Below are positions 1,041 to 63,832 of a DNA stretch of 64,000 nt, piece after piece (the first letter of the stretch is position 1; each line of letters begins with the position of its first letter). The DNA is from an uncultured Actinomycetes bacterium (GTDB lineage Bacteria > Actinomycetota > UBA4738 > HRBIN12). A program made the translations under genes and the position numbers. The stretch is from the NCBI GenBank assembly GCA_963777495.1, contig CAVZQM010000001.1, forward strand, positions 195,537 through 259,536. The letters run 5' to 3'. The notes under the pieces are model-generated. The model worked only from the letters and a program-made list of their open reading frames with translations, was not told where the DNA came from and did not search any database.

Positions 1041-1049
1041 CCCACGGGG

Positions 1050-1970: not shown

Positions 1971-2019
1971 CGCATCGCCGCCGCTGTCACGGACGGCAGC
2001 TCCGGGGGAGGAGGCACGG

Positions 2020-2541: not shown

Positions 2542-2553
2542 CGTCGCTCCGGT

Positions 2554-3735: not shown

Positions 3736-3741
3736 CGTCGG

Positions 3742-4194: not shown

Positions 4195-4280
4195 CGGTGC
4201 CTCCCTCCAGGGGTCCGACCGCCATGGTCGGCCCACCCCCACGACGAACGGGCGGTGGCGGTATCGACAGGGACGAGCGC

Positions 4281-5274: not shown

Positions 5275-5322
5275 GTGTCGGTTCCTCCTTCTCGCTCCGC
5301 AGAACCGCCGAACCGGTTGCGC

Positions 5323-6315: not shown

Positions 6316-6343
6316 GCCTTGACCATACGACTCCTGGGGCGGG

Positions 6344-8737: not shown

Positions 8738-8792
8738 GAGGCATCACTCTAGACAACCGGGCGTCCGAGCCGGGAGCCGCGAGAGCGACGGG

Positions 8793-9737: not shown

Positions 9738-9859
9738 CGGTTCCTCCAGCCGGCTCTCGTTCGCCGTGGGTCGGGGCACTTCCGTGATCGCGACCGAGGG
9801 CTGGAGTCGCTCATCGCCGGACAACGTGCGGAGTGTCGCTCTCTAGCTTACGGCACGGC

Positions 9860-41484: not shown

Positions 41485-42202
41485 CTACGTGCCGGTCAAC
41501 GAGAAGTGCATGTAGTCCTTCAGCGAGTTCCAGTCCCCGCCCCAGCCCCATCCGATCTCCGCGAAGGAGCGCACGACCGCGTCGTGTCGGTGGATCATCC
41601 CCTGGAGGTGCTGGGTGCGGTCGAGGTACGGGCAGACACGCCTTGCGCAGCACCTCGCCGTCACCGGTCACGTACGGGTTCTGCGTCGGGTTGATGTCGA
41701 TCGCCCATCCGTAGGAGTGCTGCGAGAAGCCGCTCGTCTGCCCGGTCACCGGTCGACAGTTGAACGACGCGCTCACGTTCTTGGTGCTGTACCAGTCGGA
41801 CGGCCGCGGCGGGCGCCATGCCGCGGCCAGCGCGATCTTCTGGATGGCGAACCCGGCGTCGAACAGCCGATGGAACACCGAGAGGACGTCGTCGGCGACC
41901 GTCTCGTTGATGATGAGCGGCCCCTGCTTCACGCGCCCGCCGAACGTCCAGTAGCTCACCGTCACCAGACGGAGGTCGCGGATGGGAACGGGACAGCCGG
42001 GGTGCCAGTTCCGTCCGATCAGCTCCTCACGGAGCTCCGCGTCGATCCAGCGCACCGACCCGACGAAGACCGCGGTCCCGTGGCCCGTCCGGCGATCGTC
42101 GCCGACGGAGCCCTCGCGGCATGCGCCGGGGGCGCACGCCACCAGCGTCACGACGAGCAGCAACGCGGCGAGCGCCATCGTCGATGCGTTCATCGTGTCC
42201 AT
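41485..42202 (-). CDS. peptidase M15 family (D-Ala-D-Ala carboxypeptidase / VanY-like) lipoprotein (one frameshift)
   Basis: Lipobox LVAC; zinc-binding HSYGWAIDIN; C-terminal DWNSLKDYMHFSL recovered in a shifted frame from about 41655. Confidence 0.75.
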
Positions 42203-47446: not shown

Positions 47447-47451
47447 CCGAT

Positions 47452-48756: not shown

Positions 48757-48791
48757 CCTCGCCCGAACGAGCGAGGAGCGAGGGTCGGACG

Positions 48792-50386
48792 ATGAGCTAC
48801 GACGCGATCGTCGTGGGCGGCGGACACAACGGGCTGGTGGCGGGCTTCTACCTCGCCCGGGCCGGGCTGCGCACCCTGATCCTGGAGCGTCGCGACATCG
48901 TCGGCGGCGCCTGCGTCACCGAGGAGTTCGCCCCGGGCTATCCGGGCGTCGACCGGGCGCCTACGTCTTGTCGATGCTCCGCGAGTCGATCTGGCGTGAC
49001 ATGCGGCTGGTGCAACGCGGCATCCAGGTCGACGCGGCCGGTCCCACGCTGAACGTCTTCCCCGACGGCGCGCACTACTACCTGGCCGACGACATGGACC
49101 TGACGCTCGCCGAGACGCGCCGATTCTCCACGCGCGACGCCGACGCCCTGGTCCGGCTCGAGGAGGACCTCGGCCGGCTGGCCGGTGCCGTGGTCCCGTA
49201 CTTCGAGCGGACCGCGCCGGACCCTCGCCTGCGGAGCGCGCACGACCTGCGCGAGCTGGCGCACGCCGGACGCCTGGCGCTCAAGCATCGTCGCGACCTG
49301 CTGGACCTGGCGTTCCTGTTCACCACGTCGGCCACGCAGTTCCTGGAGGAGCGGTTCGAGTCCGAGCACGTGATGGCCGCGATCGGGTGGCACGCGATCA
49401 ACGACAGCGTCGCCGGTCCCTCGACGCCCGGGACGGCGTTCGTGTTGTTGCACGATCACGCGAGCGAGGAGACGGGCGGCGGACCGCGCGCCTGGGGGTT
49501 CGTCCGCAGCGGGATGGGCCGGCTCACCGAGGTGATGGCCGATGCGGCGCGCGAGGCGGGGGCCGAGATCCGGACCGACGCGGAGGTCGAGCGCATCCTC
49601 ACCGTCGACGGCCGCGCGACGGGCGTCGCGCTCGCGAGCGGCGAAGAGATCCGCGCGTCGCGCGTGCTGTCCAACGCCGACCCCAAGCGGACGTTCTTGG
49701 GGCTGGTCGACGAACGCGATCTGCCCGACGCGTTCCTGGGATCGATCCGCGCGTACCGCTGCATGGGGACGAGCATGAAGATCAACCTCGCCGTGTCCGA
49801 GCTCCCGATGGTTCGCGGGCTCCCCGAGGGCGGCGTGCAGCCGTACCACACGGGCATCATGGAGATGAACCCGTTCATCCCCGAGATGGACATGCAGCAG
49901 GCACAGGCGCGGGCCGGCATCGCCGCCGATCCGGCGCACGTCGAGCTTTGCTTCCCGACGGTGCACGACCCGTCGCTCGCGCCGGAGGGCAAGCACGTGA
50001 TCACGATCGACGTGAACTCGCAGCCGTACGACCTGCGACACGACGATTGGGACGACCATCAAGGAGGCGCGGGCCGACGCCGCGATCGCGCAGATCGCGG
50101 AGGTGTTCCCGAAGCTCCCGGATCTGATCGAGCATCGACAGGTGCTGAGCCCGCTGGACCTCGAGCGGCTGATCGGGCTCACGGGAGGCCACGCCTTGCA
50201 CGGCGACATGTCGCCCGATCAACTCCTGTTCATGCGGCCGGTGCGCGGGTACGCGGACTACCGGACGCCGGTCCGGGGCTCTACCTCTGCGGCGCGGGCA
50301 CGCATCCCGGGGGTGGCGTCACCGGCGCCAACGGCCGCAACGCCGCGCGCGAGGTCCTGCGCGACGCGCACAAGAAGCTCGCGTAA
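48792..50386 (+). CDS. phytoene-desaturase-family (CrtI-like) FAD/NAD(P)-dependent oxidoreductase (frameshifted)
   Basis: N-terminal DAIVVGGGHNGL Rossmann motif; C-terminal …GLYLCGAGTHPGGGVTGANGRNAA…; frame switches near 48950, 50040 and 50275. Confidence 0.75.
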
Positions 50387-50403: not shown

Positions 50404-50932
50404 TCAGGCGGGCGCGCGGATCACGCGCGGCGCTCGCGGGAAGAACGACCTGCCACCACGCTCCTGCTTGCGGACGAGCTCGTTCGCGAAGATCCACTCG
50501 TGCTTGGGCAGCGGCTCGAGGCGCTCCACCTCGAAGAACGACTGCGGGCCCCCGCTCGTCGTCTCGTCGTCCTCGTCGTCCGGGTCGACATCGGGTATCG
50601 GTCTCGGCGGCGACCCGCCGTTCCTCGATCCACGTCGACGGCAGGAGGTCCGGCAGGTCGGGAGCCTCGGGTGCCACCCGCCGCGAGGAACGTGGCACGC
50701 CAGGTGACGGCCGGCACGGCGTCCTCGCCCGAGATCATCAGGAGGACGTCCATGCCGGCGGCCGCCACGTCGAGGTCGCCCGGGCTTCCGGCCGGGATGA
50801 CGACGCGGCCACTCCGGGCGCACACCGCGAGCGCGGCCTCCACGTGGCGCTGTGGGAGGCCGGCGAGCAGGACCCGCGCCTCGTGTTCCTCGTCATCCAT
50901 CCGACCCCCGATCATCCATGCGGGAGCGGCCA
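50404..50932 (-). CDS. hypothetical protein (frameshifted)
   Basis: Coding segments in three frames (MAAPAWMIGG…; …PEAPDLPDLLPSTWIEERR…; …SFFEVERLEPLPKHEWIFANELVRKQ…); no family recognised. Confidence 0.3.
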
Positions 50933-51054
50933 TCGTAGCGAAGAGGCTCTTGACCGGCGCCGAGGCATCCGTAGATTGTCGACAGTTCACAGCAGGAGGA
51001 CGGTCGACGCGTGCCGACGGTGCCGCGAGCCACCTGCGGAAGGGGGAAGCCGGG

Positions 51055-52558
51055 ATGGGTCGTGACGACGATTCGGCCGTGTACGCCGACGGGGAGGGCA
51101 GGCGCGGAGAGATCGACCGCCGCAGGTTCATCCGGATGGGGGTGGTCGGCACCGCGATGGCGAGCGCGATGCTGATGGACCGCGACCGCGAGGCGGGAGC
51201 GGCGGCGATGAAGCGCTCGACCGTCACCGGGGCTCCCCGCGCCGCCGGGCTGGTCGAAGCCGGGCCCGAGCTGGCGCTGCCGCCCGGGTTCAGCTACACG
51301 ACGTTCGGTGCGTTCGGATCGGCCATGACCGACGGGTTCATCACCCCGCCGATCCACGACGGCATGGCGGCGTTCGACATGGGTGACGGGACGCTGCGCA
51401 TCGTGCGCAACCACGAGCTCGGTGAGGGGAACGACGTCCCCGCCGGCACCGTGATCGGCGATCCGAAGACCGCGTACGACAAGAAGGCGCCGGGCGGAAC
51501 CGTCACGCTCGTGGTCGACGCCGCGACCGGGGAGCTGCGGTCCGACTGGATCAGCCTGAACGGGACCGACACGAACTGCGCCGGGATGCCGACGCCGTGG
51601 GGTACCTGGCTGACGTGTGAGGAGACGGTGGCCGGCGTGGACTCCGGACGGCTGAAGCCGCACGGCTACGTGTTCGAGGTGGATCCGTCCGCCGACGCGC
51701 CGACGAAGAGCAAGCCCTACAAGGCGATGGGGCGGTTCCTGCACGAGGCCGGCGCGGTCGATCCCGACACCGGCGTCGTCTACATGACCGAGGACGAGGG
51801 CCCGGACGGGTTCTACCGGTACCTCCCGAAGGATCCGGGCAACCTCGCGGCCGGCGGCACGCTCCAGATGCTCGCCGTCAAGGGCCAGCCGAGTACAACA
51901 CGATCGTCGGTCAGACGGTCGGCGACGTGCTGCCGGCGAACTGGGTCACGATCGACAACCCGGATCCCGGCCAACGCCGAAGACAACGCGTCCGCGGTGT
52001 TCCAGCAGGGTCGCGCCAAGGGCGCCGCGAAGTTCCTCGGAGGCGAGGGCGCGACGTTCCGCGACGGTGGCGTCGTCTTCGGCTCGTCCGACGGCGGCGA
52101 CGTCGGGACTCGGTCAGGTCTGGCAGTACACGCCGACGACCAACGTCGGGAAGAAGAACGAGGAGGGCGAGCTGGTCCTGTTGTTCGAGTCGACGGGTCC
52201 CGGCGTGCTCGACGGGCCGGACAACATGTGCACGAGTCCCGGCGGAGCGATCGTCATCGCCGAGGACGGCAACCTCAAGAGCAACTTCGTGCGTGCGTTG
52301 CTGCCCGACGGGAGCCTGATCACGGTCGCCGAGAACCTGGTGGGCGTGCAATGGCACTACATCGAGGCGTCGGGCAAGCTCTACGACCCGACGGTCCCCG
52401 ACGACGGTGCTTCCGCGGGCGACGGGATCGGTCACGCGGAGTTCGCAGGCCCCACGTTCAGCCCGGACGGGAAGTTCCTGTTCGTGAACATCCAGGTTCC
52501 CGGCATCACGTGCGCGATCACCGGCCCGTGGGCGAGCCTGGGCCTGCTGAGTCGATGA
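51055..52558 (+). CDS. phoX: PhoX-family (DUF839) phosphatase with Tat signal (frameshifted)
   Basis: RBS GAAGGGGGAAG; twin-arginine motif DRRRFIRMG; conserved …GYVFEVDP… and …DGPDNMCTSPGGAIVIAEDG… blocks; C-terminal part in a second frame. Confidence 0.7.
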
Positions 52559-53901
52559 CGGAGGACGTGCCCCGGATCGTCGCGACGCCGCCGGGCCCGA
52601 AGACACGGGAGATCCTCGCTCGTCAGGAGCGGGTGCTGTACCCGGGCCTCGCGCACGGTCTGGGGCCGTTCGTCATCAACCGCAAGTCCGGCTGGGAGAT
52701 CGAGGACGTCGACGGCAACGTCTACCTCGACTTCATCAGCGCGATGGCGTCGGTGCCGTTCGGCGCTGCGCGTCCCGACGTCGTGGAGCCGGTGATCGAG
52801 GCGCTCCGTCGCTACGGCAACGAGGACACGCACTACTACTCCAACGAGTACGTGCTGCCGCTCGCCGAGGAGCTGCTGCGCGTCGCGCCGGACGGACTCG
52901 ACGCGCGTCGACATCGCGCTGAACGGCACGGAGGCGGTCGAGACCGCCATCCGGTTCATGCGTCGCGCGACCGGTCGCCCGATCGTGATCGGGTTCATGG
53001 GCGGCTACCACGGCGAGACCGGCACCGCCGGGCGCGATCGGCGCGGAGACGTCCGATCTCTCGTTCGGCTACCGCGCGCTGATGTCCGGATTCGCCCACG
53101 TGCCCGTACCCGAACCCGTACCGAACCCCGTTCACCGCTCGTCCCGGCGGCACGGGCGACGGCACCGTCGACTACATCCGCGATCATCTCCTGCATCACG
53201 CGATCGATCCCCGCGAGGTCGCCGGCTTCGTGATCGAGCCGGTGCTCGGCAGCGGTGGCTGCGTGGCCCCTCCCGACGCGTTCTGGGCGGCGCTCGTCGA
53301 GCTCTGCCGGGAGTTCGACTTCCTCCTCTGCGCCGACGAGGTGAAGACCGGGTTCGGACGGACCGGTCACCTGTTCGCGGTCGAACGATGGGGCGTGCGG
53401 CCCGACCTGATGGCGCTCGGCAAGGCGATGGGCGGAGGCGTGATGCCGATCGGGGCGGTGCTCGGCACCGAGCGCGCCATGGGCTTCGACGATGTCTCGA
53501 CGGGCTCGACGTGGTCGTGGCTCCCGGCGGCCTGTGTGGCGGCGATCGAGACGCTCCGCGTCTTCCGCGAGGAGCCGCTCCTCGAGCACGTGCGCGAGCT
53601 GGACGCGGCTGCCCGGCGCGCGCTCGCGCCGCTGGCGGAGCGCTACGGAGCCATCGGGGACGTGCGCGTCACCGGTTGCTTCATCGCCATCGAGTTCGTG
53701 AAGGACCGTGTGACCAAGGAGCGGGACCTCGAGCTGATGGAACGGGTGGCATGGGGATGCATCCGGCGCGGGCTGCTCGCCGACGCGAGCACGACGTCGT
53801 TCAATCTCCAGCCGTCGCTCGTCACACCTGTCGACGTCCTGGAGCAGGGGATCGCGATCGTCGACGACGCGATCGCGGAAGCCGTCGGTTCGCCGGGATG
53901 A
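52555..53901 (+). CDS. class-III (PLP) aminotransferase (frameshifted)
   Basis: ATG overlaps the phoX TGA (ATGA); DEVKTGFGRTG and PLP-lysine motif LGKAMGGG; three frames. Confidence 0.8.
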
Positions 53902-53919
53902 TCGAGGGGTACCCGCGCG

Positions 53920-55068
53920 TCAGATGCCCACGGTGAACCGCGCGAGCACGGCCGCGTCGATCGCGCGTTCGTCCAGCTCCACCCCGAGCCCGGTGCCCTC
54001 GAGGGGTCCGACCGTCCCGTCGGCGTCCATCTCGAGCGGCGTCGTCACGCCCCACTCGAATTCCTCGGACGGCACCGCTCGTTCGAAGAAGCTGGTCCGG
54101 CAGAACGCGAGCATCACGTGGAGGTTCGCGGCCTGCACCGGCGTCTGGCCGTAGCTGGTCACCTCCACGTCCAGCCCGAACGCCTCCGCGACATCGAACA
54201 CCCGGAGCGCGGACGTGATGCCTCCCGCGAACGTCACGTCGAACCGCATCGCCGACCACGGCGGGTCTCGCATGATCTCCGTCATCAGACGGGGATCCCA
54301 GATCGCGTCGCCGGCCGGGATGATCGGGACGCGCCCGATCCGCACGAGCCGGCGGTACCCCTCCAGGTCGAGGTCGGGCAGCGGCGCCTCGAACCACCGG
54401 ACGCCGAGGTCTCCGAGCTCGCTCGCCATGCGTTCGGCGGCGTCGCGCTCCAAGCACCCTTCGGCGTCGTAGATCAACGCCATGTCGTCGTCCGCGCCGC
54501 GAGCGGCGCGGACGGCCTCGAGGTCGCGGTCCGGATCGCCCCAGGCGTGGATCTTCGCGGCGGTGTACCCCTCGGCGCGGCGGCGGACGACCTCGTCCGC
54601 ATAGGCCTCCGGGCGCCCGAGCGTGGGGAGCGAGGCATACGCCGGGAGTCGCTCCACGCCGCGGTGCTCGGGAGCGATCAGCCGGTGCAGCGGCAGGCCG
54701 GCGCGGTGGGCGGCCAGGTCCCACAGGGCGATGTCGATCGCGGAGCGGACACCCGGCATGTCGGGTGCGGTCCCGTGGTCACGGAGCTCGTCCCAGATGG
54801 CCCGCCGCTCCCGGGGGTCCCGGCCGATCACGCGGGGAGCGATCGTCCGGAGCGTCTCCAGCGGTGCCAGGTCGAACGCGCCGTAGCTGTCCGAATCGAA
54901 CTGGCCGAGGCCGGTGACCCCGTCGCCGTCTGTGACGCGCACCAGGGTGCTGGTCGTGAATGGAGCCGGAAGGTGGCTCGTGTACGCGTGACGGGGCAGG
55001 TCTGGACCGAGCGCCAGCACCTCGATGCGCTCGACCGGCGATCCGGGCTCCTCGGCTGCGTTTGTCAA
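53920..55068 (-). CDS. mandelate racemase / muconate lactonizing enzyme family (enolase superfamily) protein
   Basis: Intact 382-aa ORF (TTG start); capping domain plus TIM-barrel with KxK and metal-ligand Asp/Glu residues (…AAKIHAWG…ALIYDAEG…). Confidence 0.85.
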   Translation of the reverse strand: MTNAAEEPGSPVERIEVLALGPDLPRHAYTSHLPAPFTTSTLVRVTDGDGVTGLGQFDSDSYGAFDLAPLETLRTIAPRVIGRDPRERRAIWDELRDHGTAPDMPGVRSAIDIALWDLAAHRAGLPLHRLIAPEHRGVERLPAYASLPTLGRPEAYADEVVRRRAEGYTAAKIHAWGDPDRDLEAVRAARGADDDMALIYDAEGCLERDAAERMASELGDLGVRWFEAPLPDLDLEGYRRLVRIGRVPIIPAGDAIWDPRLMTEIMRDPPWSAMRFDVTFAGGITSALRVFDVAEAFGLDVEVTSYGQTPVQAANLHVMLAFCRTSFFERAVPSEEFEWGVTTPLEMDADGTVGPLEGTGLGVELDERAIDAAVLARFTVGI

Positions 55069-55085
55069 CGGTTAACTGTAGGCTA
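55062..55085. promoter_or_regulatory. candidate operator (AT-rich AACGGTTAACTGT) in the divergent MR/MLE and SMP-30 promoter region
   Basis: Its reverse complement ACAGTTAACCGTT matches ACAGTTTACAGTT upstream of the GntR gene at 11 of 13 positions; the only AT-rich island in the 55.07-55.39 kb intergenic region. Confidence 0.25.
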
Positions 55086-55168
55086 TCAAGCCGTCGATGG
55101 AATCCGTTCGCGATCTCGCTGTCCCTCCCGGCTCGGTCCTGCATCGAGAGGCCCCGATGCCGCTCGAC

Positions 55169-55393
55169 CTGGAACGGCGGCCCACCCCCAACGGTGGGCA
55201 CCATCTGCACGGCGACATGTCGCCGGACCAACCGCTGTTCCTGCGGCCGGTGCGCGGCGACGCGGACTACCGGACGCCGGTGTCGCGGTTGTATCTGTGG
55301 GGCGCGGGCACGCACCCGGGCGGGGGCGTGACCGGCGCCGACGGGCGCAACGGCGCGCGTGAGCTGCTCCGCGACGTCAGAGGGAGACGTTGA
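55169..55393 (+). pseudogene. 3' remnant of a CrtI-like oxidoreductase paralog
   Basis: Encodes …GGHHLHGDMSPDQPLFLRPVRGDADYRTPVSRLYLWGAGTHPGGGVTGADGRNGARELLRD…, about 70% identical to the C-terminus of the 48792-50386 gene; no N-terminal Rossmann domain; stop overlaps the SMP-30 ATG. Confidence 0.5.
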
Positions 55394-56241
55394 TGCTCGA
55401 CCGGTTCGACGAACTCGCCGAAGGGTTGAACCATCCGGAGGGCGTCACGTGGAACCCGTTCGACGGGTTGGTCTACGCGGGTGGAGAAGGAGGCGAGCTG
55501 TACGCGATCACGCTCGATGGCGAGGTCGAGCAACGCGGCGCCACCGGTGGTTCGATGCTGGGGCTCGCGGTGGACGGCGCGGGGCGCGTGTACGCCTGCG
55601 ATGCCGGCAACGGCGAGATCGTGCGGCTGGACCCGGCCTCGGGTGTGGTCGAGATCTACGGACGTGGCGTCGGGGGCGACGATCTCGACACGCCGAACGT
55701 CGCGGCGTTCGGTCCCGACGGGATGCTCTACGTGACGTGTTCCGGAGAGGACGATCGCCCCGAGATCGTCCGGATCGTGCCCGGTGCCGACGGCGATCGG
55801 CGGACCGAGCGCTGGAGCGCCGACGTGCCGCGGTACCCGAACGGGTGCGTGGTGACGACAGACGGTTCCGCGCTCATCGTCGTCGAGGCGAAGGCGGAGC
55901 GGGTCGTTCGCGTGCCGATCCTGCCGGACGGGGTTGCCGGCACCCCCGAGGTCATCGCCGACCTCCCCGACACGGATCCCGACGGGCTTGCGATCGCCGC
56001 GGACGGCGCGTACTGGGTGACGTTGTATCGTCCGGACGGCTTGTTGCGGATCGCGCCCGACGGCACCGTGGCTACGGTCGTCGACGACCACCTCGCGTCG
56101 ACGTTCGACGCGCCGACGAACATCGCCTGGGTCGGCCCGGCACTCGACCGAGTCGTCGTCGCGAACGTCGGCGACCGCTTCCTGTCGATCGGCGACGTCG
56201 GGGTGACCGGACTACCGCTCCATCATCCGGAGGTGCCGTGA
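55393..56241 (+). CDS. SMP-30/gluconolactonase/LRE family protein
   Basis: Intact ORF; six-bladed beta-propeller lactonase signatures (…EGVTWNP…, …PNGCVVTTDG…, …DGLAIAADG…). Confidence 0.85.
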   Translation: MLDRFDELAEGLNHPEGVTWNPFDGLVYAGGEGGELYAITLDGEVEQRGATGGSMLGLAVDGAGRVYACDAGNGEIVRLDPASGVVEIYGRGVGGDDLDTPNVAAFGPDGMLYVTCSGEDDRPEIVRIVPGADGDRRTERWSADVPRYPNGCVVTTDGSALIVVEAKAERVVRVPILPDGVAGTPEVIADLPDTDPDGLAIAADGAYWVTLYRPDGLLRIAPDGTVATVVDDHLASTFDAPTNIAWVGPALDRVVVANVGDRFLSIGDVGVTGLPLHHPEVP

Positions 56242-57060
56242 TGGCCCGCTACACCGACCGGAACGTGATCGTGACCGGAGGGGCTCAAGGCATCGGGCGC
56301 GGCATCGTCGAGGCGTTCCTCGCCGAGGGGGCGCACCGTCTTCGCCGCCGACATCCGCGCCGACGGGCTCGAGGGTATGCGCGCGGCGCAGGCCGAGCCC
56401 GATCGCGTGCGCACCCACGCCGTCGATCTCTCCGACTTCGAGGCCGCAAAGGCGATGGCGCGCGCTGCGATCGAGGAGCTCGGACACATCCACGTGCTGG
56501 TCAACTGCGCCGGGGTCATGCCCGGCGGCCCGCTGATCGACGTGTCGCGGGAGACGTTCGACCTGACGTTCGCGGTCAACGCCCGCGCGCCCATGGCCAC
56601 GATGCAGGTCGTGGCCGCCCACATGGCCGAACACGGAGGCGGCGCCATCGTGAACATCGCGTCGGCGAACGCGTTCAAGAACGAATCGCCCGAGGCGCCG
56701 TACAACGCGTCCAAGGCGGCGCTGGTCGCGCTCACCAAGGCGGCGGCCCACGAGTGGGGCCACCTCAACATCCGCGCCAACTGCGTCGCGCCGGGGCAGA
56801 CCACGACCCCGGAGGAAGAGATCGAGATCGCGTCCGATCCGGACGAGGCGCGTCTCCAACGCGACTACCTGATGCGGATCCCGCTGCGGCGGGCTGGGGC
56901 GCCGCACGATCAAGCAGCCGCGGTGTTGTTCCTGGCGTCCGACGAGGCCGCATGGATCAGTGGACAGACGTTGATCGTCGACGGCGGCGAGCTCGGCGGC
57001 GGCGATTGGTACGACCCGGCCGACGCGCCGCCCATCCCCGACGAGGGGCAGTCCTCGTGA
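56241..57060 (+). CDS. SDR family oxidoreductase (one frameshift)
   Basis: ATG overlaps the SMP-30 TGA (TGATG); TGGAQGIGRG cofactor motif, NASK…YNASKAA (YxxxK) catalytic motif; shift near 56330. Confidence 0.8.
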
Positions 57061-57073
57061 GCGCGGGACACCG

Positions 57074-58328
57074 ATGAGCGCAGCCACCGCTCCGGCTCCG
57101 GTCCTGGAGCTCGCCACGTTCCGCGTCGACGACGTCGTGGAGGGCCGAGCGACGTCGTGGCTGAACGGACGGCTGGAGCTCGACGTCGGAGCGCTCGCAG
57201 ACGCGGCGTCGGAGCCGGCGCTCGCCGACGTGCGGATCGACGTCGTCCGTCCGGGGGACCCGGTGCGGATCGCCAACGTCCTGGACGCGGTCCTGCCGGA
57301 CGTGAAGGCCGACGATCCGGACCGAACGTTCCCCGGTGCGCTCGGCTCGCTGACGATCGCCGGTCGCGGACGGACGAACCGGCTCGACGGCGTCGCCGTC
57401 CTCTCCGTCTGCGACTGGCTCGCCGCGGGCTACACGCAACCCGACGAGTTTCCGGACGCGCTCGTCGACATGGCGGGTCCGGGCGCGGAGGTGACGCGGT
57501 GGGGACGCACGATCGACGTCGTGGTCCGGTGCGTCCCGTCGGCCGGCGCGCCCATCGGGGACGTCGACCGTGCCGTGCGACGCGCGTCGCTCCGTGTCGC
57601 GCGCGATCTGGCCGCGGCGACGATCGATCGTGAGGCGAGCGAGGTCGCGACGCTGGAGCGTCCGCGCGCCGGCGTCGATCCCGCGCTCCCATCGGTCGGC
57701 GCGATCCTCCAGGTGGCGTCGGAAGGCCCGCTGACCGACACGTTCCTCTACGGCCGCGCGGTCGGCGGGATCGTGCCGACGCTGCTCGACGCGAACGAGG
57801 TGCTCGACGGGGCGCTCACGAACGGCGCCTACGACTGGGCGTCGGTTCGCAACGTGACCGCGAACTATCAGGATTCGTCGCTCGTCCGCACGCTCCTGGC
57901 CGGTCACGGCGAACGGCTGGCGGTTCGCCGGCTTGATCCTGGCGCTCGGCTACCTGGATACGCGCGTTCGAGAAGCAGCGGTCGGCCATGCTCTCCGCCC
58001 GCCTCGCCAGGTCGTTGGGCGCCGACGGCGTCGTGTGCACGACGTTCTCGTCGGGCAACTCGCACACCGACACGATGCTCACGGTGCGCGCGTGCGAATC
58101 GCTCGGCATCCGCACCACGGCCATCATCAGCGAGACGAACGGCGGGCTCACGGATCACGTCCCTGAGGCGGACGCCATCGTGAGCGTCGGCAACGAGGAC
58201 GAACTGATCGAACCCGTGGACGCCGGAGCGCGTGGTGGGTGCCGAGCGAGCCCGTGCGCGGCGGGCGAGCCGGTCCCGCTCTGGGCGTACCTGGGCGCGA
58301 CCGTGGCAGACGGGCGACATGGCGCTGA
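57074..58328 (+). CDS. grdE: glycine/sarcosine/betaine reductase component B alpha/beta proprotein (GrdE/PrdA family; frameshifted; 3' end approximate)
   Basis: DVVRPGDPVRIANVLDAVLPDVK region parallels ELARPGESVRIIPVKDVIEPRVK of clostridial GrdE; internal Cys-containing segment VVCTTFSSGNSH in a second frame; a +1-frame TGA at 58326-58328 is taken as the end. Confidence 0.65.
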
Positions 58329-58341
58329 CGGCGGTGCCGGC

Positions 58342-59635
58342 ATGACGGTCGTCCATTACCTCAACCAGTTCTTCGCCGGGCTGGGCGGCGAAGAGGCCGC
58401 GAGCCAGGAGCCGGTGCGGATCGAGGGCGCGGCCGGTCCCGGCCGGGGACTCGTGGCGGCCGGGCTCGAGATCGACGTGACGCTCGCGTGCGGCGACGAC
58501 CGGTTCGGTGAGCACGAGGCGGAGTCGCTCGCGCGTCTGCTGAGCGTGGCTGGACGAGATCCGGCCCGACGTCCTGGTGTGCGGTCCGTCGTTCGGATCC
58601 GGCCGTTACGGCTACGCGTGCGGTTCGCTCGCGCGCGAGGCGGGGAGGCGCGGCATCCCGGTCGTGTCCGGCATGACGCCCGACAGCCCCGGCGTGCTGG
58701 CGGCCGAAGGCGCCGCGTACATCGTCCCGACGGGGCCGAACGTCGCGAGCATGCGCACCGCGCTCCCCGTGATCGCGAGCCTCGCCGGCCGGCTGGCGAC
58801 GGGCGAGCCGGTCGGATCACCCGAGGACGAGGGATACCTGCCGCGCGGTCTCCGCACGAACGTTCACGCCGACAGGACGGGCGCGGAGCGCGCGCTCGAC
58901 CTGCTGCTGGCCAAGCTCGGCGGCGACGTCCGCTCCGAGGTCGTCCCGAGCGGCGACCGCGTGGCACCGCCTGCCGCGGTCACCGGATGTGGCGACGGCG
59001 ACGCCTCGCGCTGGTCACCGAGGCCGGCTGCGTCCCGCAGGGGAACCCCGACCGGCTGCCGACGCGGCACGCCAACGTGTGGCTGCGGTATCCGATCGAC
59101 GGCGTGGCGACGTTCGCCGCGGGCGCCTACGAGTCGGTGCACGCCGGGTTCGACACCACGGCCGCGAACGCCGACCCGAACCGGCTGGTGCCGCTCGACG
59201 CGGTGCGCGAGCTTGAGGCGGGAGGGCCGGATCGGTTCGTTGCACGACCGGTTCTACACGACGACCGGTGTCGACACGCCGGTCGCCACGTCGGCCAAGT
59301 TCGGGCGCGAGATCGCGGAGGAACTGCGGGATGCCGGGGTCCAGGCCGTCATCCTCACCGGAACCTGAGGCACAGGCACGCGTTGCGGGGCAACGCTTGC
59401 GAAGGAGATAGAGCGGATGGGGATCGCGACGGTGTTCGTCACGGCGCTCCCGACCATCGCGCAGATGGTCGGGGCGAACCGGGTGCTGCGTGGGGTGTCC
59501 ATCACCCATCCCACCGGGGACCCGTCCCTGTCCGTGGGTGATGAGCGCGCCCTTCGCCGCCGCGTCGTGGAGCGCGCCCTCGAGCTGCTCGCCACGGATG
59601 TCGGCCCGGGCACCGTGTGGGAGGTGCCGGCATGA
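58342..59635 (+). CDS. grdB: glycine/sarcosine/betaine reductase selenoprotein B (in-frame TGA = Sec at 59366-59368; internal frameshifts)
   Basis: GRDB-family N-terminus MTVVHYLNQFFAGLGGEE. The ORF track splits it into two ORFs, but TGA 59366-59368 is in frame with the downstream 72-aa ORF (59417-59635). The joined sequence reads …AVILTGT-U-GTGTRCGATLAKEIERMGIATVFVTALPTIAQMVGANRV…, where GrdB-type proteins carry U. A SECIS-like hairpin lies 12 nt downstream. Confidence 0.7.
59380..59396 (+). other. SECIS-like hairpin downstream of the grdB UGA
   Basis: GCGTTG-CGGGG-CAACGC: 6-bp perfect stem with G-rich apical loop, starting 12 nt after TGA 59366-59368. Confidence 0.4.
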
Positions 59636-60949
59636 CGGGCCGCGACGTCGCGATCACCGGCGCGTCGTTGACGTTGCAGCACGTTCCCGACCTGGTCCGG
59701 TACGGCTCGAAGCCGCGGCGCGAGCACGAGCGGCTCCCGCAGGTCGGTGACGCGCTGCGGAGCTTCAGCGACGCCGTCAGCTATCCGCCGAACCAGGTGT
59801 TCATCGGGAACGCGGACCCAGGCATCCTGCGGGAGCTGCCGCGTCCCTGGTGGCGAGATGCCCCTCCCGGGGACCCGCGCGGCGCCTTCGGCGACATCCT
59901 GGATCAGGCGACGTTCTACGAGCTCCTCGCCGAGCTCGACCAGTTCGAGCTCGTGCGCCTGAAGGAGGAGCCGCGTCCCGGCGAGCTGCCCGCTGTTCGA
60001 CGGCGCGGACGTCGTGGGCGCGTTCGCGGCGGCCCACGAGGCCGATGAGTCGCTGTCGGCGCACGTGCTCCTGGAGAACCTGGCGTGCAAGGCCGGCGCG
60101 GTGCACGCGACGCGGCACCTGCTGGCGGCGACCGGCGTCGACCCGGCGTCGATCCCGTACGTGATCGGCGCGGGGGAGGAGGCGATCGGCGACCGGTATC
60201 AGCGCGGCGGAGGCAACCTCGGCAAGGCGGTCGCCGAGGCGGCGGGACTCACCGAGGCGAGCGGCTGCGACATCAAGGCGTTCTGTGCGGCGCCGATCCA
60301 CGCGCTGGTGGTCGCCGGCGCGCTTGGTGTCGGCGGGCGTGTACGACCGGGTGGCGGTCGTCGCCGGCGGCGCGCTGGCCAAGCTCGGCATGAAGTTCGA
60401 GGGTGCGCTCGAGCACGACGATGCCGATCCTGGAGGACGTGCTCGCGAGCATGGCGATCCTCGTCGAGGCGGCGGCGAGATCGTGCGGGCCGGTGATCCG
60501 GATGGACGCGGTCGGGCGTCACCGCGTGGCGGCGGGAGTCGTCCCAGCAGGCGTTGCTGGAGGACATCGTCGGCGCGCCGCTCGCGGCGATGGGGCGAAC
60601 GATCGCCGACGTCGACGTCTACGCCACCGAGCTCCACAACCCGGAGATCACGGAGTCGTCGGGCGGAGGCGACGTCCCCGACCGGAACTACCGCATGCTC
60701 GCTGGGCTCGGCGTGGTGCGCGGCGATCTCACCAAGGAGGAGCTCCTCCCGTTCGTCCGTTCGCACGGGCTGCCGGGCTTCTCACCGACGCAGGGGCACA
60801 TCGCGTCGGCGATCCCGTGGCTTCCGCACGCGTTGCGGGCGTTCGAACGCGGCGATCTGCACACGACGATGTTGATGGCGAAGGGCAGCCTGTTCCTCGG
60901 CCGGATGACGCGGCTCTGGGACGGAGCTTCGATCACGTTGGAGGGATAG
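59632..60949 (+). CDS. grdC: glycine reductase complex component C-like protein (GrdC/GrdD family; frameshifted)
   Basis: ATG overlaps the grdB stop (ATGA); N-terminus …TLQHVPD…SFSDAVSYPPNQVFIGN… parallels GrdC; thiolase/KAS-like C-terminal part (…GHIASAIPWLPHA…) in two further frames. At 439 aa it may be a truncated GrdC or a GrdC/GrdD fusion. Confidence 0.6.
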
Positions 60950-61309
60950 ATGGCGACGGAAGCGACCGTGGAGACGTTCACCGAGCTGGTGAAGGAAGGG
61001 CACGTCCTGCTCGACGTCTGGGGACCGGACTGCGCCCCGTGTATGGCGATGATGCCGGCCGTCGAGGCCCTAGAGGACAAGTACGAGGGGCGCATCACGC
61101 TGCTCAAGCTGAACGCGCCGGAGAACCGACAGGTGTGCCGGGACATGCGCGTCGCCGGGCTTCCCACGTACATCACGCTCCGCGACGGCGGCGAGGTCGA
61201 ACGGGTTACCGGCAACGGCGCCACGATCGCCGACATCGAGGCCGCGATCGAGCGGCTCCTGGCCGGCGCACCGGTGACCGGGCTCCCGGTGCCGGAGCAC
61301 CTGCGGTAA
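60950..61309 (+). CDS. trxA: thioredoxin (CxxC = CAPC), grd-cluster associated
   Basis: Intact 119-aa ORF; RBS TGGAGGGA; WGPDCAPC active site; follows the grdC stop directly. Confidence 0.8.
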   Translation: MATEATVETFTELVKEGHVLLDVWGPDCAPCMAMMPAVEALEDKYEGRITLLKLNAPENRQVCRDMRVAGLPTYITLRDGGEVERVTGNGATIADIEAAIERLLAGAPVTGLPVPEHLR

Positions 61310-61357
61310 GGCCGGCAGCATCCTGCGATCTGAGTGAGGGAGGTGAGGACGGACGAG

Positions 61358-61816
61358 ATGGAACTCAAGGGCAAGAAGGTGATCGCGCTCGGCGAGCGAG
61401 ACAGCGTCCCCGGCGAAGCCATCGCCGCGGTGGCGCGGTCGGCGGGCGCCGAGGTGATCGAGACGCGCACGGAATGCTTCGTCTGAACCGCTTCCGGCGC
61501 CATGGATCCAGAGAACCAGGGGTTGATCAAGCGCATCGCCGACGAGCTCGGGACCACCGATCTCGTCGTGATCCTCGGAGCGGCCGACGCCGAAGCGGTC
61601 GAGGTCGCCGCGGAGACGGTGCGTGAAGGCGATCCCGCGTACGTGGGTCCGTTGGCCGGGGTCCAGTTGGGCCTCCCTGTGTGGCACATCTTCGAGGACG
61701 AAGTGAAAGACCAGGCCGATCCTGCGGTCTACGAGGAGCAGGTCGGGTTCTTCGAGCTGTCCTTCGACACCGAGAGCGTGAAGGAAGCGATGAAGCGGGC
61801 TCGGGGGGAGACGTGA
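61358..61816 (+). CDS. grdA: glycine/sarcosine/betaine reductase complex selenoprotein A (in-frame TGA = Sec at 61484-61486)
   Basis: RBS GAGGGAGGTGAGGA. Translation reads [54 protein letters not shown]…GDPAYVGPLAGVQLGLPVWHIFEDEVK…, closely matching clostridial GrdA (TECFVUTSAGAMD…; AGPLAGVQLGL). Without readthrough only a 42-aa peptide would result. Confidence 0.85.
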
Positions 61817-61930
61817 TCACCCTCCGCGCGGAAGAACCCACGGCTGCGCGGGCCCGCTCGCGGGGCTCGCACCTGCGGAGATGCCGATGGGACGCCGTTC
61901 CCGCCGCTCCCGGCCCCTTGCTTTGCCAGC

Positions 61931-61950
61931 GGTTGACAGTTTACAGTTCC
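61931..61950. promoter_or_regulatory. candidate promoter/operator upstream of the gntR-SBP-permease operon
   Basis: TTGACA (-35-like) at 61933-61938 overlapping tandem ACAGTT-T-ACAGTT; AT-rich island 65 nt upstream of the GntR start. Confidence 0.3.
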
Positions 61951-62015
61951 CCGTGAGCCCCAGGAACATGGGTTCGGACGAGGCGAGCCGGAGGGTTCGC
62001 CGGGAGGAGGGGTCG

Positions 62016-62723
62016 ATGAGCGAGACCACCAGCGCAGCCACGTTGCGGCCCCTCGACGCGCCTCGGTCCTTGGCCGAGGACGCGGCCGACCGGATCCGTG
62101 AGCAGATCCTGGCGGGCGGCTTCGCGCAAGGGGAGCATCTGGTGGAGGCGCGGATCGCGGAGCAGCTGAACGTCAGCCGCGGTCCCGTCCGCGAGGCGTT
62201 CAAGCTCCTGCGATCCGAGGGACTCCTGTTGGAGGAGCCGCGCCGAGGCACGTTCGTCGTGAGCCTCTCCGCCGACGACGTCCGGGAGATCTACAGCCTC
62301 CGGGCGGCGATCGAAGGCCGGGCGGCCCGGTTGCTCGCCGCCAAGCAGGACGTGGCTGCGGTCGCCGAACTGCGCGGGCTGCTTTCCTCGATCGAAGCCG
62401 CGGCCGCCGCGGGCGACGTCGCCGCCGTGTACCGGCAGGACCTGGCCTTCCACGACGCGGTGTGCCGGCTCTCGGGCAACGCGCGGCTGCACGAGGTCTT
62501 CGCGCGCTACGTGCCCATGTTGCGGGCGCTGCTGCACGTGGACGAACGCATGCAGGACTCGCTCGCCGCCGTCGCGGAACAGCACCGACCCATCGTCGAT
62601 GCCATCGACGCCGGCGACGTCCAGGGCGCCATGACGCACACCGAGCATCACTGCGATCAAGCCGGAGAGCTGATCGCGGCGTACCTCGACTCGCTACCGG
62701 AACGCAACGAGGAGGAACGATGA
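62016..62723 (+). CDS. GntR family transcriptional regulator (FadR/FCD subfamily)
   Basis: Start at ATG 62016 with RBS GGGAGGAGGGG; wHTH (…AEDAADRIREQILAGGFAQGEHLVEARIAEQLNVSRGPVREAF…); FCD effector-binding domain. Confidence 0.85.
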   Translation: MSETTSAATLRPLDAPRSLAEDAADRIREQILAGGFAQGEHLVEARIAEQLNVSRGPVREAFKLLRSEGLLLEEPRRGTFVVSLSADDVREIYSLRAAIEGRAARLLAAKQDVAAVAELRGLLSSIEAAAAAGDVAAVYRQDLAFHDAVCRLSGNARLHEVFARYVPMLRALLHVDERMQDSLAAVAEQHRPIVDAIDAGDVQGAMTHTEHHCDQAGELIAAYLDSLPERNEEER

Positions 62724-63832
62724 CGAGCCGTCGGATCCGGGGTTTCGCGCTGCTGGTGTCGGTGTTCGCACTCATGGCCGCCGGCTGTTCGTCCGGCGAT
62801 CCGGAAGACGGCGACAGTAACACCGCCACTCCCTCCGGCGCGGGGTCCGTCACCCCGTCGGGCACGCTTCGGCTCTTCTCCTATAGCGATGGCTTCGACC
62901 CCGCGTACATGGAGTCGTTCTACGAGGAGTACCCCGACATCGATCTCGAGACGGCGTCGTTCGGCAGCAACGACGAAGCCGTCGCGAAGCTCCAGGCCGG
63001 ATTCCAGGCGGACGTGATCAATAGCTGTGTCGACGAAGCCACGCTCGAGATGGTGAACAAGGGTCTCTATGCGCCGCTCGATGTCTCGCGTCTGGAGAAC
63101 TGGGACGACATCTGGCCGTCGATGAAGGCGCTTCCGGGGGTCCAGGTCGACGGCGAGGTCTACCTCGTACCTGCCGACGCGGGCACGGCGGGGATCCTGT
63201 ACAACGCGGACGTCGTGACGACACCCCCCACGTCGTGGCTCGATCTGTTCGATCCTCAGTGGGCCGGGAGGGCTTCCATCGAAGACCTCTCCGTCACCGC
63301 GATCGACATCGGAGCGTTGGTGAACGGGATCTCCGATCCGTTGACCATGTCCTCGGATCAGCTCGAACTGGTCAAGAACTACCTGATCGATCACCGCGAT
63401 CAGTTCCGGACGTTCTGGAAGGGTGCGGCCGACATCAAGTCGCAGTTCAAGTCCGGCGAGGTCGTGATCGCGTCCGGCTATCCCGACTACGCCAAGCAGC
63501 TTCGCCGGGAAGGTGTCAACGCGCAGTTCGCCGTCGCCGAGGAAGGCCAGATGCTGTGGACGTGCGGCTACGGCATCAGTCCGGATGCGGAGAACCTCGA
63601 TGCTGCCTACGCGTTGCTCAACTGGTATTCGAGCGTGCCGCCGCAGGTCTACGCGGCGACGGAATTCGACTACATCACGTCGAACATGACCGTGGGCGAC
63701 CTGCTGACCCCGGAGGCGATCGCGAACTCCGGTCTCGACACGTTCGGTCAGGCGACCAACGCGATCCCGGCGAGTCCCCCCAACGATCGCGAGGCCTGGG
63801 TCGCGGCATGGACCGAGGTGAAGGCCTCCTAG
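62720..63832 (+). CDS. ABC transporter substrate-binding lipoprotein (PotD/spermidine-putrescine-like, SBP family 1)
   Basis: ATG overlaps the gntR stop (ATGA); lipobox LMAAGCSS; intact 370-aa periplasmic-binding-protein fold. Confidence 0.85.
   Translation: MTSRRIRGFALLVSVFALMAAGCSSGDPEDGDSNTATPSGAGSVTPSGTLRLFSYSDGFDPAYMESFYEEYPDIDLETASFGSNDEAVAKLQAGFQADVINSCVDEATLEMVNKGLYAPLDVSRLENWDDIWPSMKALPGVQVDGEVYLVPADAGTAGILYNADVVTTPPTSWLDLFDPQWAGRASIEDLSVTAIDIGALVNGISDPLTMSSDQLELVKNYLIDHRDQFRTFWKGAADIKSQFKSGEVVIASGYPDYAKQLRREGVNAQFAVAEEGQMLWTCGYGISPDAENLDAAYALLNWYSSVPPQVYAATEFDYITSNMTVGDLLTPEAIANSGLDTFGQATNAIPASPPNDREAWVAAWTEVKAS

Follow-up and report, generated by a model that had tools for sequence, protein, structure and literature searches.

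Predicted operators of a FadR-subfamily GntR regulator in a Grd-like gene cluster of an uncultured actinomycete

The stretch of actinomycete DNA analysed here (the window, 64 kb) carries a cluster with the following genes:

48792-50386, plus strand: FAD oxidoreductase (FADox), phytoene-desaturase/amine-oxidase-like, with three frame changes in the assembly
50421-50900, minus strand: ORF without family match, divergent from operator O2 (see below) and specific to the window
51055-52558, plus strand: PhoX-like protein (PhoX profile positions 12-390 and 378-515), with one frame change
52549-53936 (start approximate), plus strand: class-III aminotransferase (Aminotran_3), with a frame change near 53082
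53920-55068, minus strand: MR/MLE (enolase-superfamily) enzyme with MR_MLE_N and MR_MLE_C domains, divergent from operator O3; start uncertain (TTG at 55068)
55097-55393, plus strand: remnant ORF of 98 amino acids whose stop overlaps the SMP-30 ATG
55393-56241, plus strand: SMP-30/gluconolactonase-like protein (SGL domain)
56275-57060, plus strand: short-chain dehydrogenase, SDR (adh_short_C2 domain)
57074-59640 (approximate), plus strand: GrdE-like proprotein (PF09338) and GrdB-like selenoprotein B (PF07355), split by frame changes and the expected UGA
59617-60949, plus strand: conserved small ORFs of unassigned function, including a DUF5940 protein (60554-60949)
60950-61309, plus strand: thioredoxin
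61358-61816, plus strand: GrdA-like selenoprotein A, with an in-frame TGA at 61484-61486
62016-62723, plus strand: FadR-subfamily GntR regulator (Pfam, NCBIfam and PDB relatives)
62720-63832, plus strand: PotD-like lipoprotein, the substrate-binding protein of an ABC importer (domain and profile matches)

Domain and profile matches bear out the gene calls of an earlier note on this DNA for the MR/MLE, SMP-30, SDR, Grd-like, FCD-type GntR and PotD-like binding proteins. Intact orthologs of interrupted genes are found in the related locus L022. The FADox ortholog (L022:622-2220) features Amino_oxidase, DAO and NAD_binding_8 domains and a match to the crtI family, and the aminotransferase ortholog (L022:2217-3551) spans both window pieces. 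The GrdE-like and GrdB-like orthologs lie at L022:5202-6455 and L022:6410-about 7740, and the thioredoxin ortholog (L022:9068-9433) matches PF00085. The L022 GrdB-like protein reaches 269 bits with TIGR01918 (cut-off 65) and has its TGA within VILTGT-U-GTGTRCG, a UxxC motif, which places it in the glycine/sarcosine/betaine/D-proline reductase selenoprotein B family; in the window, frame changes break up the gene. Both the GrdB and the GrdE homologs score far below the glycine, sarcosine and betaine equivalog cut-offs. The cluster shares with clostridial grd operons a GrdE-like proprotein, a thioredoxin, and GrdA-like and GrdB-like proteins that have their in-frame UGA codons in the canonical motifs, but differs in having neither GrdC nor GrdD in the cluster and in its hosts, which are high-GC actinomycete MAGs.

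Some features are particular to the window. The ORF at 50421-50900 has no homolog in any related locus, and the PhoX-like gene, whose product carries the twin-arginine signal RRRFIRMG, is an insertion ahead of the aminotransferase gene that is absent from the related loci. The remnant ORF has about 10 codons like the start of the M20-peptidase gene that follows the same operator in L001, fused to the codons for the carboxyl-terminal 88 residues of a second FADox copy. For the SDR, the amino-terminal motif precedes the first start codon in frame, which makes a sequence error at the start of the gene likely.

The regulator combines an amino-terminal GntR winged helix (PF00392, E = 1.2e-16, residues 19-81) with a carboxyl-terminal FCD domain, all-helical and ligand-binding (PF07729, E = 2.1e-24, residues 91-214). 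Its PDB relatives, among them PdhR and McbR, are GntR regulators of the FCD type. Its TGA overlaps the ATG of the binding-protein gene (ATGA), which indicates that the two form one operon. By far its best family match is PhnR of the Burkholderia type (TIGR03338; 144.6 bits, E = 3e-42, full length), a score well below the cut-off of 271.5, and the window regulator is therefore related to PhnR but not an equivalog. Both adjoin ABC importers and aminotransferases for small amino compounds; the phosphonate-specific enzymes PhnW, PhnX and PhnA were not found in the cluster. Domain searches of the window and the related loci revealed no second regulator gene in the cluster.

The earlier note had pointed to two 13-mers, ACAGTTAACCGTT at 55067-55079 (minus strand) and ACAGTTTACAGTT at 61936-61948 (plus strand), as putative sites for this GntR protein. 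They do match at 11 of 13 positions, and the coordinates of the flanking ORFs agree with their intergenic, promoter-proximal location. The first site sits in the gap of about 28 nt that separates the minus-strand MR/MLE ORF from the ATG at 55097; the second is found 115 nt past the stop codon of the GrdA-like gene (61816) and about 70 nt ahead of the gntR ATG (62016). The 13-mers are offset reads of one 17-bp palindrome, TTGTCGAC-W-GTCGACAA, in which two GT-N2-AC boxes follow each other at a distance of 7 bp; some sites add a third box in the same phase. What is conserved, GTYRAC-N-GTYRAC plus flanks, lies about 4 nt off the frame of the 13-mers. Four predicted operators of this type are present in the intergenic DNA of the window:

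48727-48743: operator O1 (new), TTGTTGACAGTCAACCA; 25.0 bits with the symmetrised matrix, 27.5 bits with the first matrix
50969-50992: operator O2 (new), CCGTAGATTGTCGACAGTTCACAG; 20.8 and 14.8 bits with the symmetrised matrix, 21.6 and 20.6 bits with the first matrix
55062-55078: operator O3 (first 13-mer), TTGTCAACGGTTAACTG; 20.7 bits with the symmetrised matrix, 16.0 bits with the first matrix
61930-61946: operator O4 (second 13-mer), CGGTTGACAGTTTACAG; 22.1 bits with the symmetrised matrix, 25.4 bits with the first matrix

Window sequence was left out of the training of both matrices, and the four sites score 20.7-25.0 bits with a matrix trained on other genomes only. Shuffled sequence yields 0.17 matches per window at 14 bits or more, the 95th percentile of its best score being 15.4 bits. 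The coding DNA of the window has a single match, at chance level, with matrices built without the window.

Two AT-rich intergenic stretches might resemble each other by chance and have no common function. The first pattern was defined post hoc from two sites only, and its zero expectation is uninformative alone because it was written after the sites had been seen; moreover, the intergenic DNA of high-GC genomes is enriched in AT-rich stretches anyway. Nor are the two sites the only AT-rich islands, as had been claimed: nine stretches between 55000 and 62100 have a 13-nt window with at most 5 G+C, the sites being the longest (29 nt) and the third-longest (20 nt), and at least one of the others, at 58352-58373 (22 nt), lies in coding DNA. 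Against this, the earlier estimate of about one chance match of such quality per window proves too high, since chance would give 0.07 matches per window to the first 13-mer at 11/13 or better. Chance resemblance is refuted by the recovery of both sites at more than 20 bits with matrices from other genomes and by the conservation and site count in related loci described next, which leave it next to no probability.

The comparison set comprises 30 loci from related genomes of uncultured soil actinomycetes, whose GntR proteins are 59-87% identical, 482 kb in total. The earlier note had made its proposal depend on conservation upstream of orthologous operons and on a lower frequency in coding DNA, and both are observed. 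In 29 of the 30 loci the 150 nt ahead of the GntR ortholog contain a match of at least 12/13 to GTYRAC-N-GTYRAC, and L001 and L003, the two closest relatives, keep the O3 block in the same place, divergent from MR/MLE. The loci hold 72 sites (29 of them those used to build the matrix) versus 1.25 in shuffles, every one intergenic, between cluster genes and at operon heads: those of FAD oxidoreductase/aminotransferase/SMP-30/SDR, the Grd-like reductase, gntR, the PotD-like ABC transporter, and the divergent MR/MLE or SDR gene. By classes partly defined from the locus matches themselves, 29 sites are upstream of gntR, 23 of the transporter, 11 of FADox (in 11 loci) and 7 of the Grd operon. The MR/MLE ortholog is divergent from gntR and shares its operator in at least 10 loci. 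No site is detectable at the FADox head in L025, nor at the Grd operon head in L015, L023 and L025.

Across genomes, sites thus precede gntR itself as well as neighbouring operons of shared function, the pattern of a local autoregulated regulon. It is likely, with a probability of about 0.8, that the two 13-mers are parts of two of four window operators for the FadR-subfamily GntR protein encoded at 62016-62723. Conservation, position and co-occurrence with the regulator give good support to the proposal that this protein controls the enzyme set and the PotD-like uptake system. The predicted regulon exceeds the one first proposed: the window has four putative operators, and related loci have as many as four each.

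Comparative genomics described FadR-subfamily regulators (FadR, LldR, PdhR, GlcC, UxuR, HypR and others) as local, usually autoregulated and dedicated to catabolic clusters, with palindromic operators in which 2 or 3 nt separate TKGT from ACMA and which are often common to divergent genes (PMC4494728). The sites found here agree with this in being palindromes of the TKGT/ACMA type, each box being GT-N2-AC. The G, T, A and C of both boxes do not vary among the 48 unique sites, which have T/K and M/A as flanks and are two-fold symmetric over their full length. They depart from the subfamily rule in having two boxes 7 bp apart, so that the outer TKGT and ACMA are separated by 9 nt and an inner AC-N-GT pair is present, which makes a doubled operator; O2 has three heptad-phased boxes, GTAGAT-T-GTCGAC-A-GTTCAC. 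One dimer could occupy the outer TKGT and ACMA boxes, or two dimers the overlapping GT-N2-AC palindromes. Some family members, such as NanR, bind repeats rather than one palindrome (PMC4494728).

A close parallel is PrpR of P. aeruginosa, an autoregulated FadR-subfamily GntR repressor of the 2-methylcitrate cycle (propionate catabolism), whose operator ATTGTCGACAAT was predicted by phylogenetic footprinting and which binds in EMSA a region upstream of prpR containing ATTGTCGACAAT (PMC9765439). The two systems have in common the GntR winged helix with an all-helical ligand domain and the GT-N2-AC palindrome, GATTGTCGACAGT in O2 matching ATTGTCGACAAT at 11/12 positions. They differ in that PrpR has a single 12-bp palindrome, whereas the window has two or three boxes 7 bp apart (17 bp), and in their unrelated target genes. 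The NCBIfam search of the window regulator returned no PrpR model.

The sites might also be genuine operators of another transcription factor encoded elsewhere, the adjacent GntR protein recognising something else. The link between protein and site is drawn from sequence; an exact 19-mer variant of the site recurs in unrelated low-GC contigs without such a GntR, so the sequence is not exclusive to the regulator, and distant FCD regulators of Arthrobacter (34-36% identical) have similar sites, which means that the specificity is not unique to one protein. In the reverse test, however, a GntR ortholog adjoins the 19-mer in 15 of 22 metagenome contigs, all with the same GntR-site-transporter layout. 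In 29 of 30 loci the gntR ortholog directly follows the site, whatever the gene on the other side, no further regulator is conserved in the cluster, and the motif bears the GT-N2-AC signature of the FadR subfamily (PMC4494728). Recognition by another factor is accordingly improbable.

Every site class overlaps a -35 or -10 hexamer of promoters predicted from consensus hexamers only. The transporter-upstream sites all fit TTGACA(half-site)-N17/18-TANNNT (23/23). Upstream of gntR, 17 of the 29 sites show the leaderless arrangement operator-N7-10-TANNNT-N6-8-ATG, and 8 have TANNNT inside the operator. The Grd-operon-upstream sites (7/7) have TAGACT in the left box, directly ahead of the start codon. 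In the window, the TTGACA of O1 is followed after 18 nt by TAGCCT (48754-48759), with the FADox ATG 49 nt downstream of O1; O2 overlaps the -10 of a promoter-like TTGACC-N16-TAGATT (50950-50977), and a conserved TAGGCT (55079-55084) adjoins O3. No promoter was identified for the MR/MLE gene. The TTGACA reported by the earlier note to overlap the second site is present at 61933-61938, but it is a half-site of the palindrome and no TANNNT is found 17 nt downstream. A different candidate appears there:

61918-61947, plus strand: candidate gntR promoter, TTGCTT-N18-TACAGT, with the -10 TACAGT supplied by the right-hand box of O4

In the alignment it is kept as TTGCNT-N18-TACAGT in L001, L002, L003 and L010.

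The coincidence of half-sites with TTGACA, TAGACT, TACAGT and TAGATT is what one would see if these elements were promoter DNA only, either housekeeping -35/-10 hexamers or promoters of a dedicated sigma factor. The position of the palindrome nevertheless varies by site class, since it may cover the -35, fall within the spacer, or span the -10 and transcription start, and its invariant two-fold symmetric positions reach beyond any single hexamer. The rest of the window and the locus flanks lack such sites, though ordinary promoters must exist there. Promoter function without a repressor operator is therefore very unlikely. The overlap with hexamers fits repression by promoter occlusion with autoregulation.

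Each operator would be built into a core promoter, one box supplying or abutting the -35 (TTGACA) or the -10 (TAGACT, TACAGT, TAGATT), and the bound regulator would exclude RNA polymerase. In the absence of inducer GntR would repress five units: its own gntR/ABC-importer operon, the operon of the remnant ORF, SMP-30, SDR and Grd-like reductase, the divergent MR/MLE gene, the FAD-oxidoreductase gene, and the PhoX-like/aminotransferase unit. The inducer might be an amino compound imported by the PotD-like transporter, or a metabolite thereof; its binding to the FCD domain would release the DNA and induce the whole module. While the sites, their conservation, positions and co-occurrence with the regulator are read directly from the genomes, binding by GntR, repression and release by inducer are what they predict.

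GntR could instead be an activator or dual regulator at some sites, and not simply a repressor that its ligand releases. FadR-type proteins are able to activate genes as well, E. coli FadR activating fabA from a site near -40, and the transporter-upstream sites centre on the -35 region. Most sites, however, cover the -10, the start point or the -35/spacer of otherwise good promoters (TTGACA-N17-TAGGTT) that would not need activation, and characterised FadR-subfamily local regulators of catabolic clusters are mostly repressors (PMC4494728; PrpR, PMC9765439). An activating role is thus unlikely, and the switch is most likely an ordinary one, a local repressor of the FadR subfamily, set over an unusual selenium-dependent enzyme set.

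More tentatively, and with the odds rather against it, the regulon may be the circuit of an undescribed selenocysteine-dependent Grd-type reductive pathway of soil actinomycetes, with the amino-compound substrate or its metabolite as inducer. Such a pathway would comprise GrdE-like, GrdB-like and GrdA-like proteins, thioredoxin, three conserved small proteins and DUF5940, with no GrdC/GrdD, and would be coupled to the amine-oxidase-like flavoprotein, class-III aminotransferase, SMP-30, SDR, MR/MLE and PotD-like importer. The boxes that double as -10/-35 hexamers would be an evolved hard-wiring of repression into each promoter. Literature searches found no report of a GntR/FCD regulator of grd genes.

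A motif call made by eye in raw sequence has here survived comparative tests, and it joins some 15 kb of otherwise loosely linked genes in one putative co-regulated module, probably substrate-inducible. As regulon reconstruction this is routine; its value is that a defined 17-bp predicted operator and a candidate sensor protein give access to the pathway, by way of reporters and of ligands screened against the FCD domain. The ligand of the sensor would reveal the substrate of a Grd-type selenoenzyme system whose specificity is that of none of the known glycine, sarcosine, betaine or proline reductases. The module is kept in more than 45 genomes and contigs of uncultured actinomycetes.

The two 13-mers on which the earlier note based a putative GntR regulon are present in the window, ACAGTTAACCGTT at 55067-55079 on the minus strand and ACAGTTTACAGTT at 61936-61948 on the plus strand, and are identical at 11 of 13 positions. 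The ORF map places each between genes, as had been proposed. The first (site 1) lies between the MR/MLE ORF (53920-55068, minus strand) and an ATG at 55097; the second (site 2) is found between the stop codon of the GrdA-like gene (61816) and the ATG of the regulator gene gntR (62016). A search of the 64 kb with the first 13-mer, allowing up to two mismatches, retrieves just these two sites. Dinucleotide-preserving shuffles yield 0.07, so that the estimate of roughly one match by chance in each window was too pessimistic. Their description as the only AT-rich islands was overstated: within 55000-62100 of this window, whose G+C content is 70%, there are nine islands at the 13-nt scale, among which the sites rank first (29 nt) and third (20 nt) in length, and at least one other (58352-58373, 22 nt) is coding DNA.

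GntR relatives scanned at one genome per species gave 30 orthologous loci (L001-L029 and L058), all from uncultured Actinomycetes/Actinomycetota MAGs (one titled Thermoleophilia), in which GntR is 59-87% identical to the window regulator. Comparison of these orthologs reveals the motif GTYRAC-N-GTYRAC (at least 12 of 13 positions) no more than 150 nt upstream of gntR in 29 of the 30 loci; in L011, the one exception, gntR comes immediately after the SDR gene. The alignments show that the earlier note had identified the right places in a frame about 4 nt off, and its register ACAGTTnACmGTT was dropped for GTYRAC-N-GTYRAC with flanks, where conservation is located. Site 2 then reads GTTGAC-A-GTTTAC (61932-61944) and site 1 GTCAAC-G-GTTAAC (55064-55076). 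Site 1 is kept in L001 (1.57-Mb contig CAVTOC010000005.1) and L003, the closest relatives, which share with the window the block GTCAACGGTwrACwGTAgGCTATC...CCGT..ATGGA; the flanks diverge. Site 2 and a TTGCNT upstream of it are kept in L001, L002, L003 and L010.

Matrices and site classes were derived from one set of related loci, never from the window. A first matrix of 21 nt, built without the window from 24 unique ortholog sites, gives 25.4 bits to site 2 and 16.0 bits to site 1, and detects new intergenic sites at 48725-48745 (27.5 bits) and 50967-50994 (21.6 and 20.6 bits). The second, symmetrised matrix (17 nt, consensus TTGTCGAC-W-GTCGACAA) was trained on 48 unique sites from all classes, leaving out the window and two sites orthologous to site 1. 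It finds four candidate operators.

Candidate GntR operators in the window, with symmetrised-matrix scores and the genes that each would control.
48727-48743: O1, 25.0 bits; the FADox gene (amine-oxidase/CrtI-like FAD oxidoreductase, 48792-50386)
50976-50992: O2, 20.8 bits; a divergent pair, the minus-strand unknown ORF and the PhoX-like and aminotransferase unit (51055-53936)
55062-55078: O3 (site 1), 20.7 bits; MR/MLE (minus strand) and the remnant-ORF/SMP-30/SDR/Grd operon (55097-61816)
61930-61946: O4 (site 2), 22.1 bits; gntR and the transporter

Block shuffles of the window contain 0.17 matches that reach 14 bits; their best scores have a 95th percentile of 15.4 bits. Apart from O1-O4 the sole match of the symmetrised matrix in the window, 41750-41766 (CGGTCGACAGTTGAACG, 15.3 bits), scores at shuffle level and was judged a chance match; it sits within an M15-peptidase-like coding region and its boxes are imperfect, the left one being broken.

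The 30 loci (482 kb) hold 72 matches of at least 15 bits, 29 of them training sites of the matrix, versus 1.25 in shuffles. Mapping of the window proteins by tblastn places all 72 between cluster genes; with 20 kb covered per relative, the off-cluster frequency of sites is known for ~1 Mb in total.

Classes of operator sites in the related loci.
29 loci: upstream of gntR, often common to a divergent MR/MLE or SDR gene
23 loci: between gntR and the transporter gene
11 loci: upstream of FADox, at the head of the long operon
7 loci: upstream of the GrdE-like gene, the Grd genes being a separate unit there

Operon heads with no site detected are those of FADox (L025) and Grd (L015, L023 and L025). 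The window has no operator between gntR and the transporter gene, though most relatives have one, and L001 and L003 likewise lack it. Locus L058 carries two identical 21-nt sites (GACGATTGACTGTCGACAATC) at 3438 and 9930, separated by 6.5 kb. Behind the first is a stretch of 23 residues matching the GntR amino terminus (3509-3577), which suggests a duplication of promoter, operator and gntR 5' end.

The gene calls of the earlier note are backed by Pfam for MR/MLE, SMP-30/SGL, SDR, Gly_reductase (GrdE-like), GRDB, the GntR+FCD regulator and the SBP_bac_8 binding protein. The gntR stop codon and the ATG of the binding-protein gene share the ATGA at 62720-62723, which is preceded by AGGAGG; the pair thus forms one operon. 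The long operon is clarified by the intact orthologs of the Illumina-assembled relative L022, where the order is FADox, class-III aminotransferase, SMP-30, SDR, GrdE-like, GrdB-like, three small proteins without assigned function, thioredoxin, GrdA-like, gntR, binding protein, two permeases and ATPase. The assembly of the window has many frame changes, three in FADox (48792-50386) and others in the PhoX-like (51055-52558), aminotransferase (52549-53936) and GrdE/GrdB-like (57074-59640) genes, and its gene boundaries are therefore approximate. These genes are otherwise well conserved with high third-position GC, and the SDR gene has, at 56275-56377, no in-frame start codon ahead of its Rossmann motif. 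Such defects stem either from noise in a long-read assembly or from genuine decay of the genes.

FADox and the aminotransferase gene are contiguous in related loci. In the window they are separated by the segment 50421-52558, with the minus-strand unknown ORF and the PhoX-like gene, which carries a Tat signal and heads the plus-strand unit followed by the class-III aminotransferase. Both are absent from all related loci and thus look like an insertion that brought its own operator; this operator, O2, has three boxes and resembles the Grd-upstream class of other genomes. The 98-codon ORF behind O3 (55097-55393) was at one point read as an internal in-frame deletion of FADox, which was rejected after comparison with L001 (3080-4210) and L003 (1974-3610). 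Its first ~10 codons resemble the start of an M20-peptidase gene found behind the same operator in L001, and the remaining 88 residues correspond to the carboxyl terminus of a second FADox copy. On this comparison the ORF is a predicted fusion remnant of an M20 start and a FADox tail, and the ~2.4 kb deletion would have spared the promoter, operator and start codon as well as the overlap with the start of SMP-30. Directly upstream of O1 the window codes an Orn/DAP/Arg-decarboxylase-like protein and an amidohydrolase (46196-48756), whose orthologs in L010 and L004 likewise lie next to this operator. The stretch upstream of these two genes (45.5-46.25 kb) yielded no site; they may thus belong to the same metabolic island under separate control.

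The operator consists of two GT-N2-AC boxes 7 bp apart, three in O2, and T/K and M/A flanks are found solely on its outer side; one dimer may bind across the outer boxes, or two dimers may be bound. Its position was read against promoters that are all consensus predictions. In the transporter-upstream sites (23 of 23) a right-hand TTGACA lies 17-18 nt before a TANNNT hexamer. The gntR-upstream sites end 7-10 nt before TANNNT in 17 of 29 cases, this hexamer being 6-8 nt before the ATG, which predicts leaderless transcripts; a further 8 have TANNNT within the operator. In all seven Grd-upstream sites the left box contains TAGACT, immediately ahead of the start codon. Among the window operators, O1 supplies TTGACA-N18-TAGCCT, O2 overlaps TTGACC-N16-TAGATT, O3 adjoins a conserved TAGGCT and O4 supplies the TACAGT of TTGCTT-N18-TACAGT. 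The TTGACA at 61933 was discarded as -35 of gntR, having no TANNNT 16-18 nt downstream, the conserved promoter being instead TTGCNT-N18-TACAGT. The boxes double as promoter hexamers, hence their AT-rich departures from GTCGAC (GTAGAC, GTTTAC, GTTAAC), which made the original 13-mers conspicuous. The position of the sites argues for repression, and the circuit would be that of an autoregulated, ligand-released repressor gating uptake and catabolism together.

FadR-subfamily operators are palindromes of TKGT/ACMA boxes in which GT and AC are 3 nt apart; certain groups, including PrpR, have 2 nt (PMC4494728). For PrpR of P. aeruginosa, phylogenetic footprinting predicted the operator ATTGTCGACAAT, and PrpR binds the prpR-upstream region containing it in EMSA (PMC9765439); O2 contains the similar GATTGTCGACAGT. 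The window regulator (235 residues), with its GntR winged helix and FCD domain, is by domains and by the operator rules tested a member of this subfamily. Compared to the subfamily operator the present one is a doubled version with two GT-N2-AC boxes, and this doubled, promoter-embedded form is a modest variation on a known type. The family-model search makes the regulator an equivalog of no named regulator, PhnR included (144.6 bits versus a cut-off of 271.5). The literature searched has no paper on this operator or on a GntR regulator of grd-type genes, and nothing specific on grd genes in Actinomycetota MAGs.

The regulated selenoprotein system is a more unusual element than its regulation. 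The GrdA-like gene (61358-61816; ortholog L022 9478-9930) has a conserved in-frame TGA (61484-61486) within the canonical selenoprotein-A motif, and the GrdB-like ortholog (L022 6410-~7740) has one in VILTGT-U-GTGTRCG; the observation extends to L004 and L017. Grd-type selenoproteins thus seem to be encoded in these high-GC actinomycete MAGs. Downstream of the GrdA UGA, SECIS folding gives z-scores of -1.1 to 0, and the 64-kb window has neither tRNA-Sec nor sel genes. GrdC and GrdD are missing from the operon (window 57074-61816; L022 5202-9930), which carries in their place a thioredoxin and three conserved small unknown ORFs, including DUF5940 (60554-60949). Scores of the GrdB and GrdE homologs fall far short of the cut-offs for the glycine, sarcosine and betaine equivalogs, suggesting a different substrate or chemistry. 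The best family-level matches, all below curated cut-offs, are Burkholderia-type PhnR for the regulator, PotD, YdcS and PhnS2 for the binding protein, and omega-transaminases and PbfA for the aminotransferase; they point to a small amino compound as substrate.

In a reverse test the exact 19-mer TGTCAACSGTTGACAATCT, typical of the transporter-upstream class, was searched in metagenome contigs and found in 22. Fifteen have a GntR ortholog (50-68% identical) immediately beside it in the layout site, gntR, site, transporter of the related loci, with Grd genes upstream in those long enough. The other seven are unrelated, of lower G+C (35-64%) and without such a regulator, two marine ones having 3-6 copies at gene starts. 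The association of the 19-mer with this GntR is thus strong but not exclusive. Unrelated contigs of 42-49% G+C, L060 (CENR01071885.1), L070 (CEOA01060061.1), L071 and L072, carry 2-6 copies of the palindrome, which in L070 often overlap gene starts reading MSTVD (ATG TCA ACC GTT GAC). Copies of the L060/L070 type, with which no GntR ortholog was detected, resemble a regulatory repeat belonging to a phage or another mobile genome.

Distant GntR loci chosen as a negative control (L030-L057) are mostly free of sites, with the exception of L031 (Arthrobacter sp. BE255, NZ_JAVDWK010000005.1), where five matches of 18-23 bits, such as GATTGTCAACAATTTACAGCA, are found at 851-11212. They surround genes for a HAD hydrolase, an SBP_bac_3 ABC transporter, a DAO oxidoreductase, a class-III aminotransferase and an aldehyde dehydrogenase, and the locus also encodes two FCD-GntR paralogs that share just 34-36% identity with the window regulator. 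These sites were not dismissed as noise but attributed to a related system, which offers a related operator type in a cultured, tractable organism.
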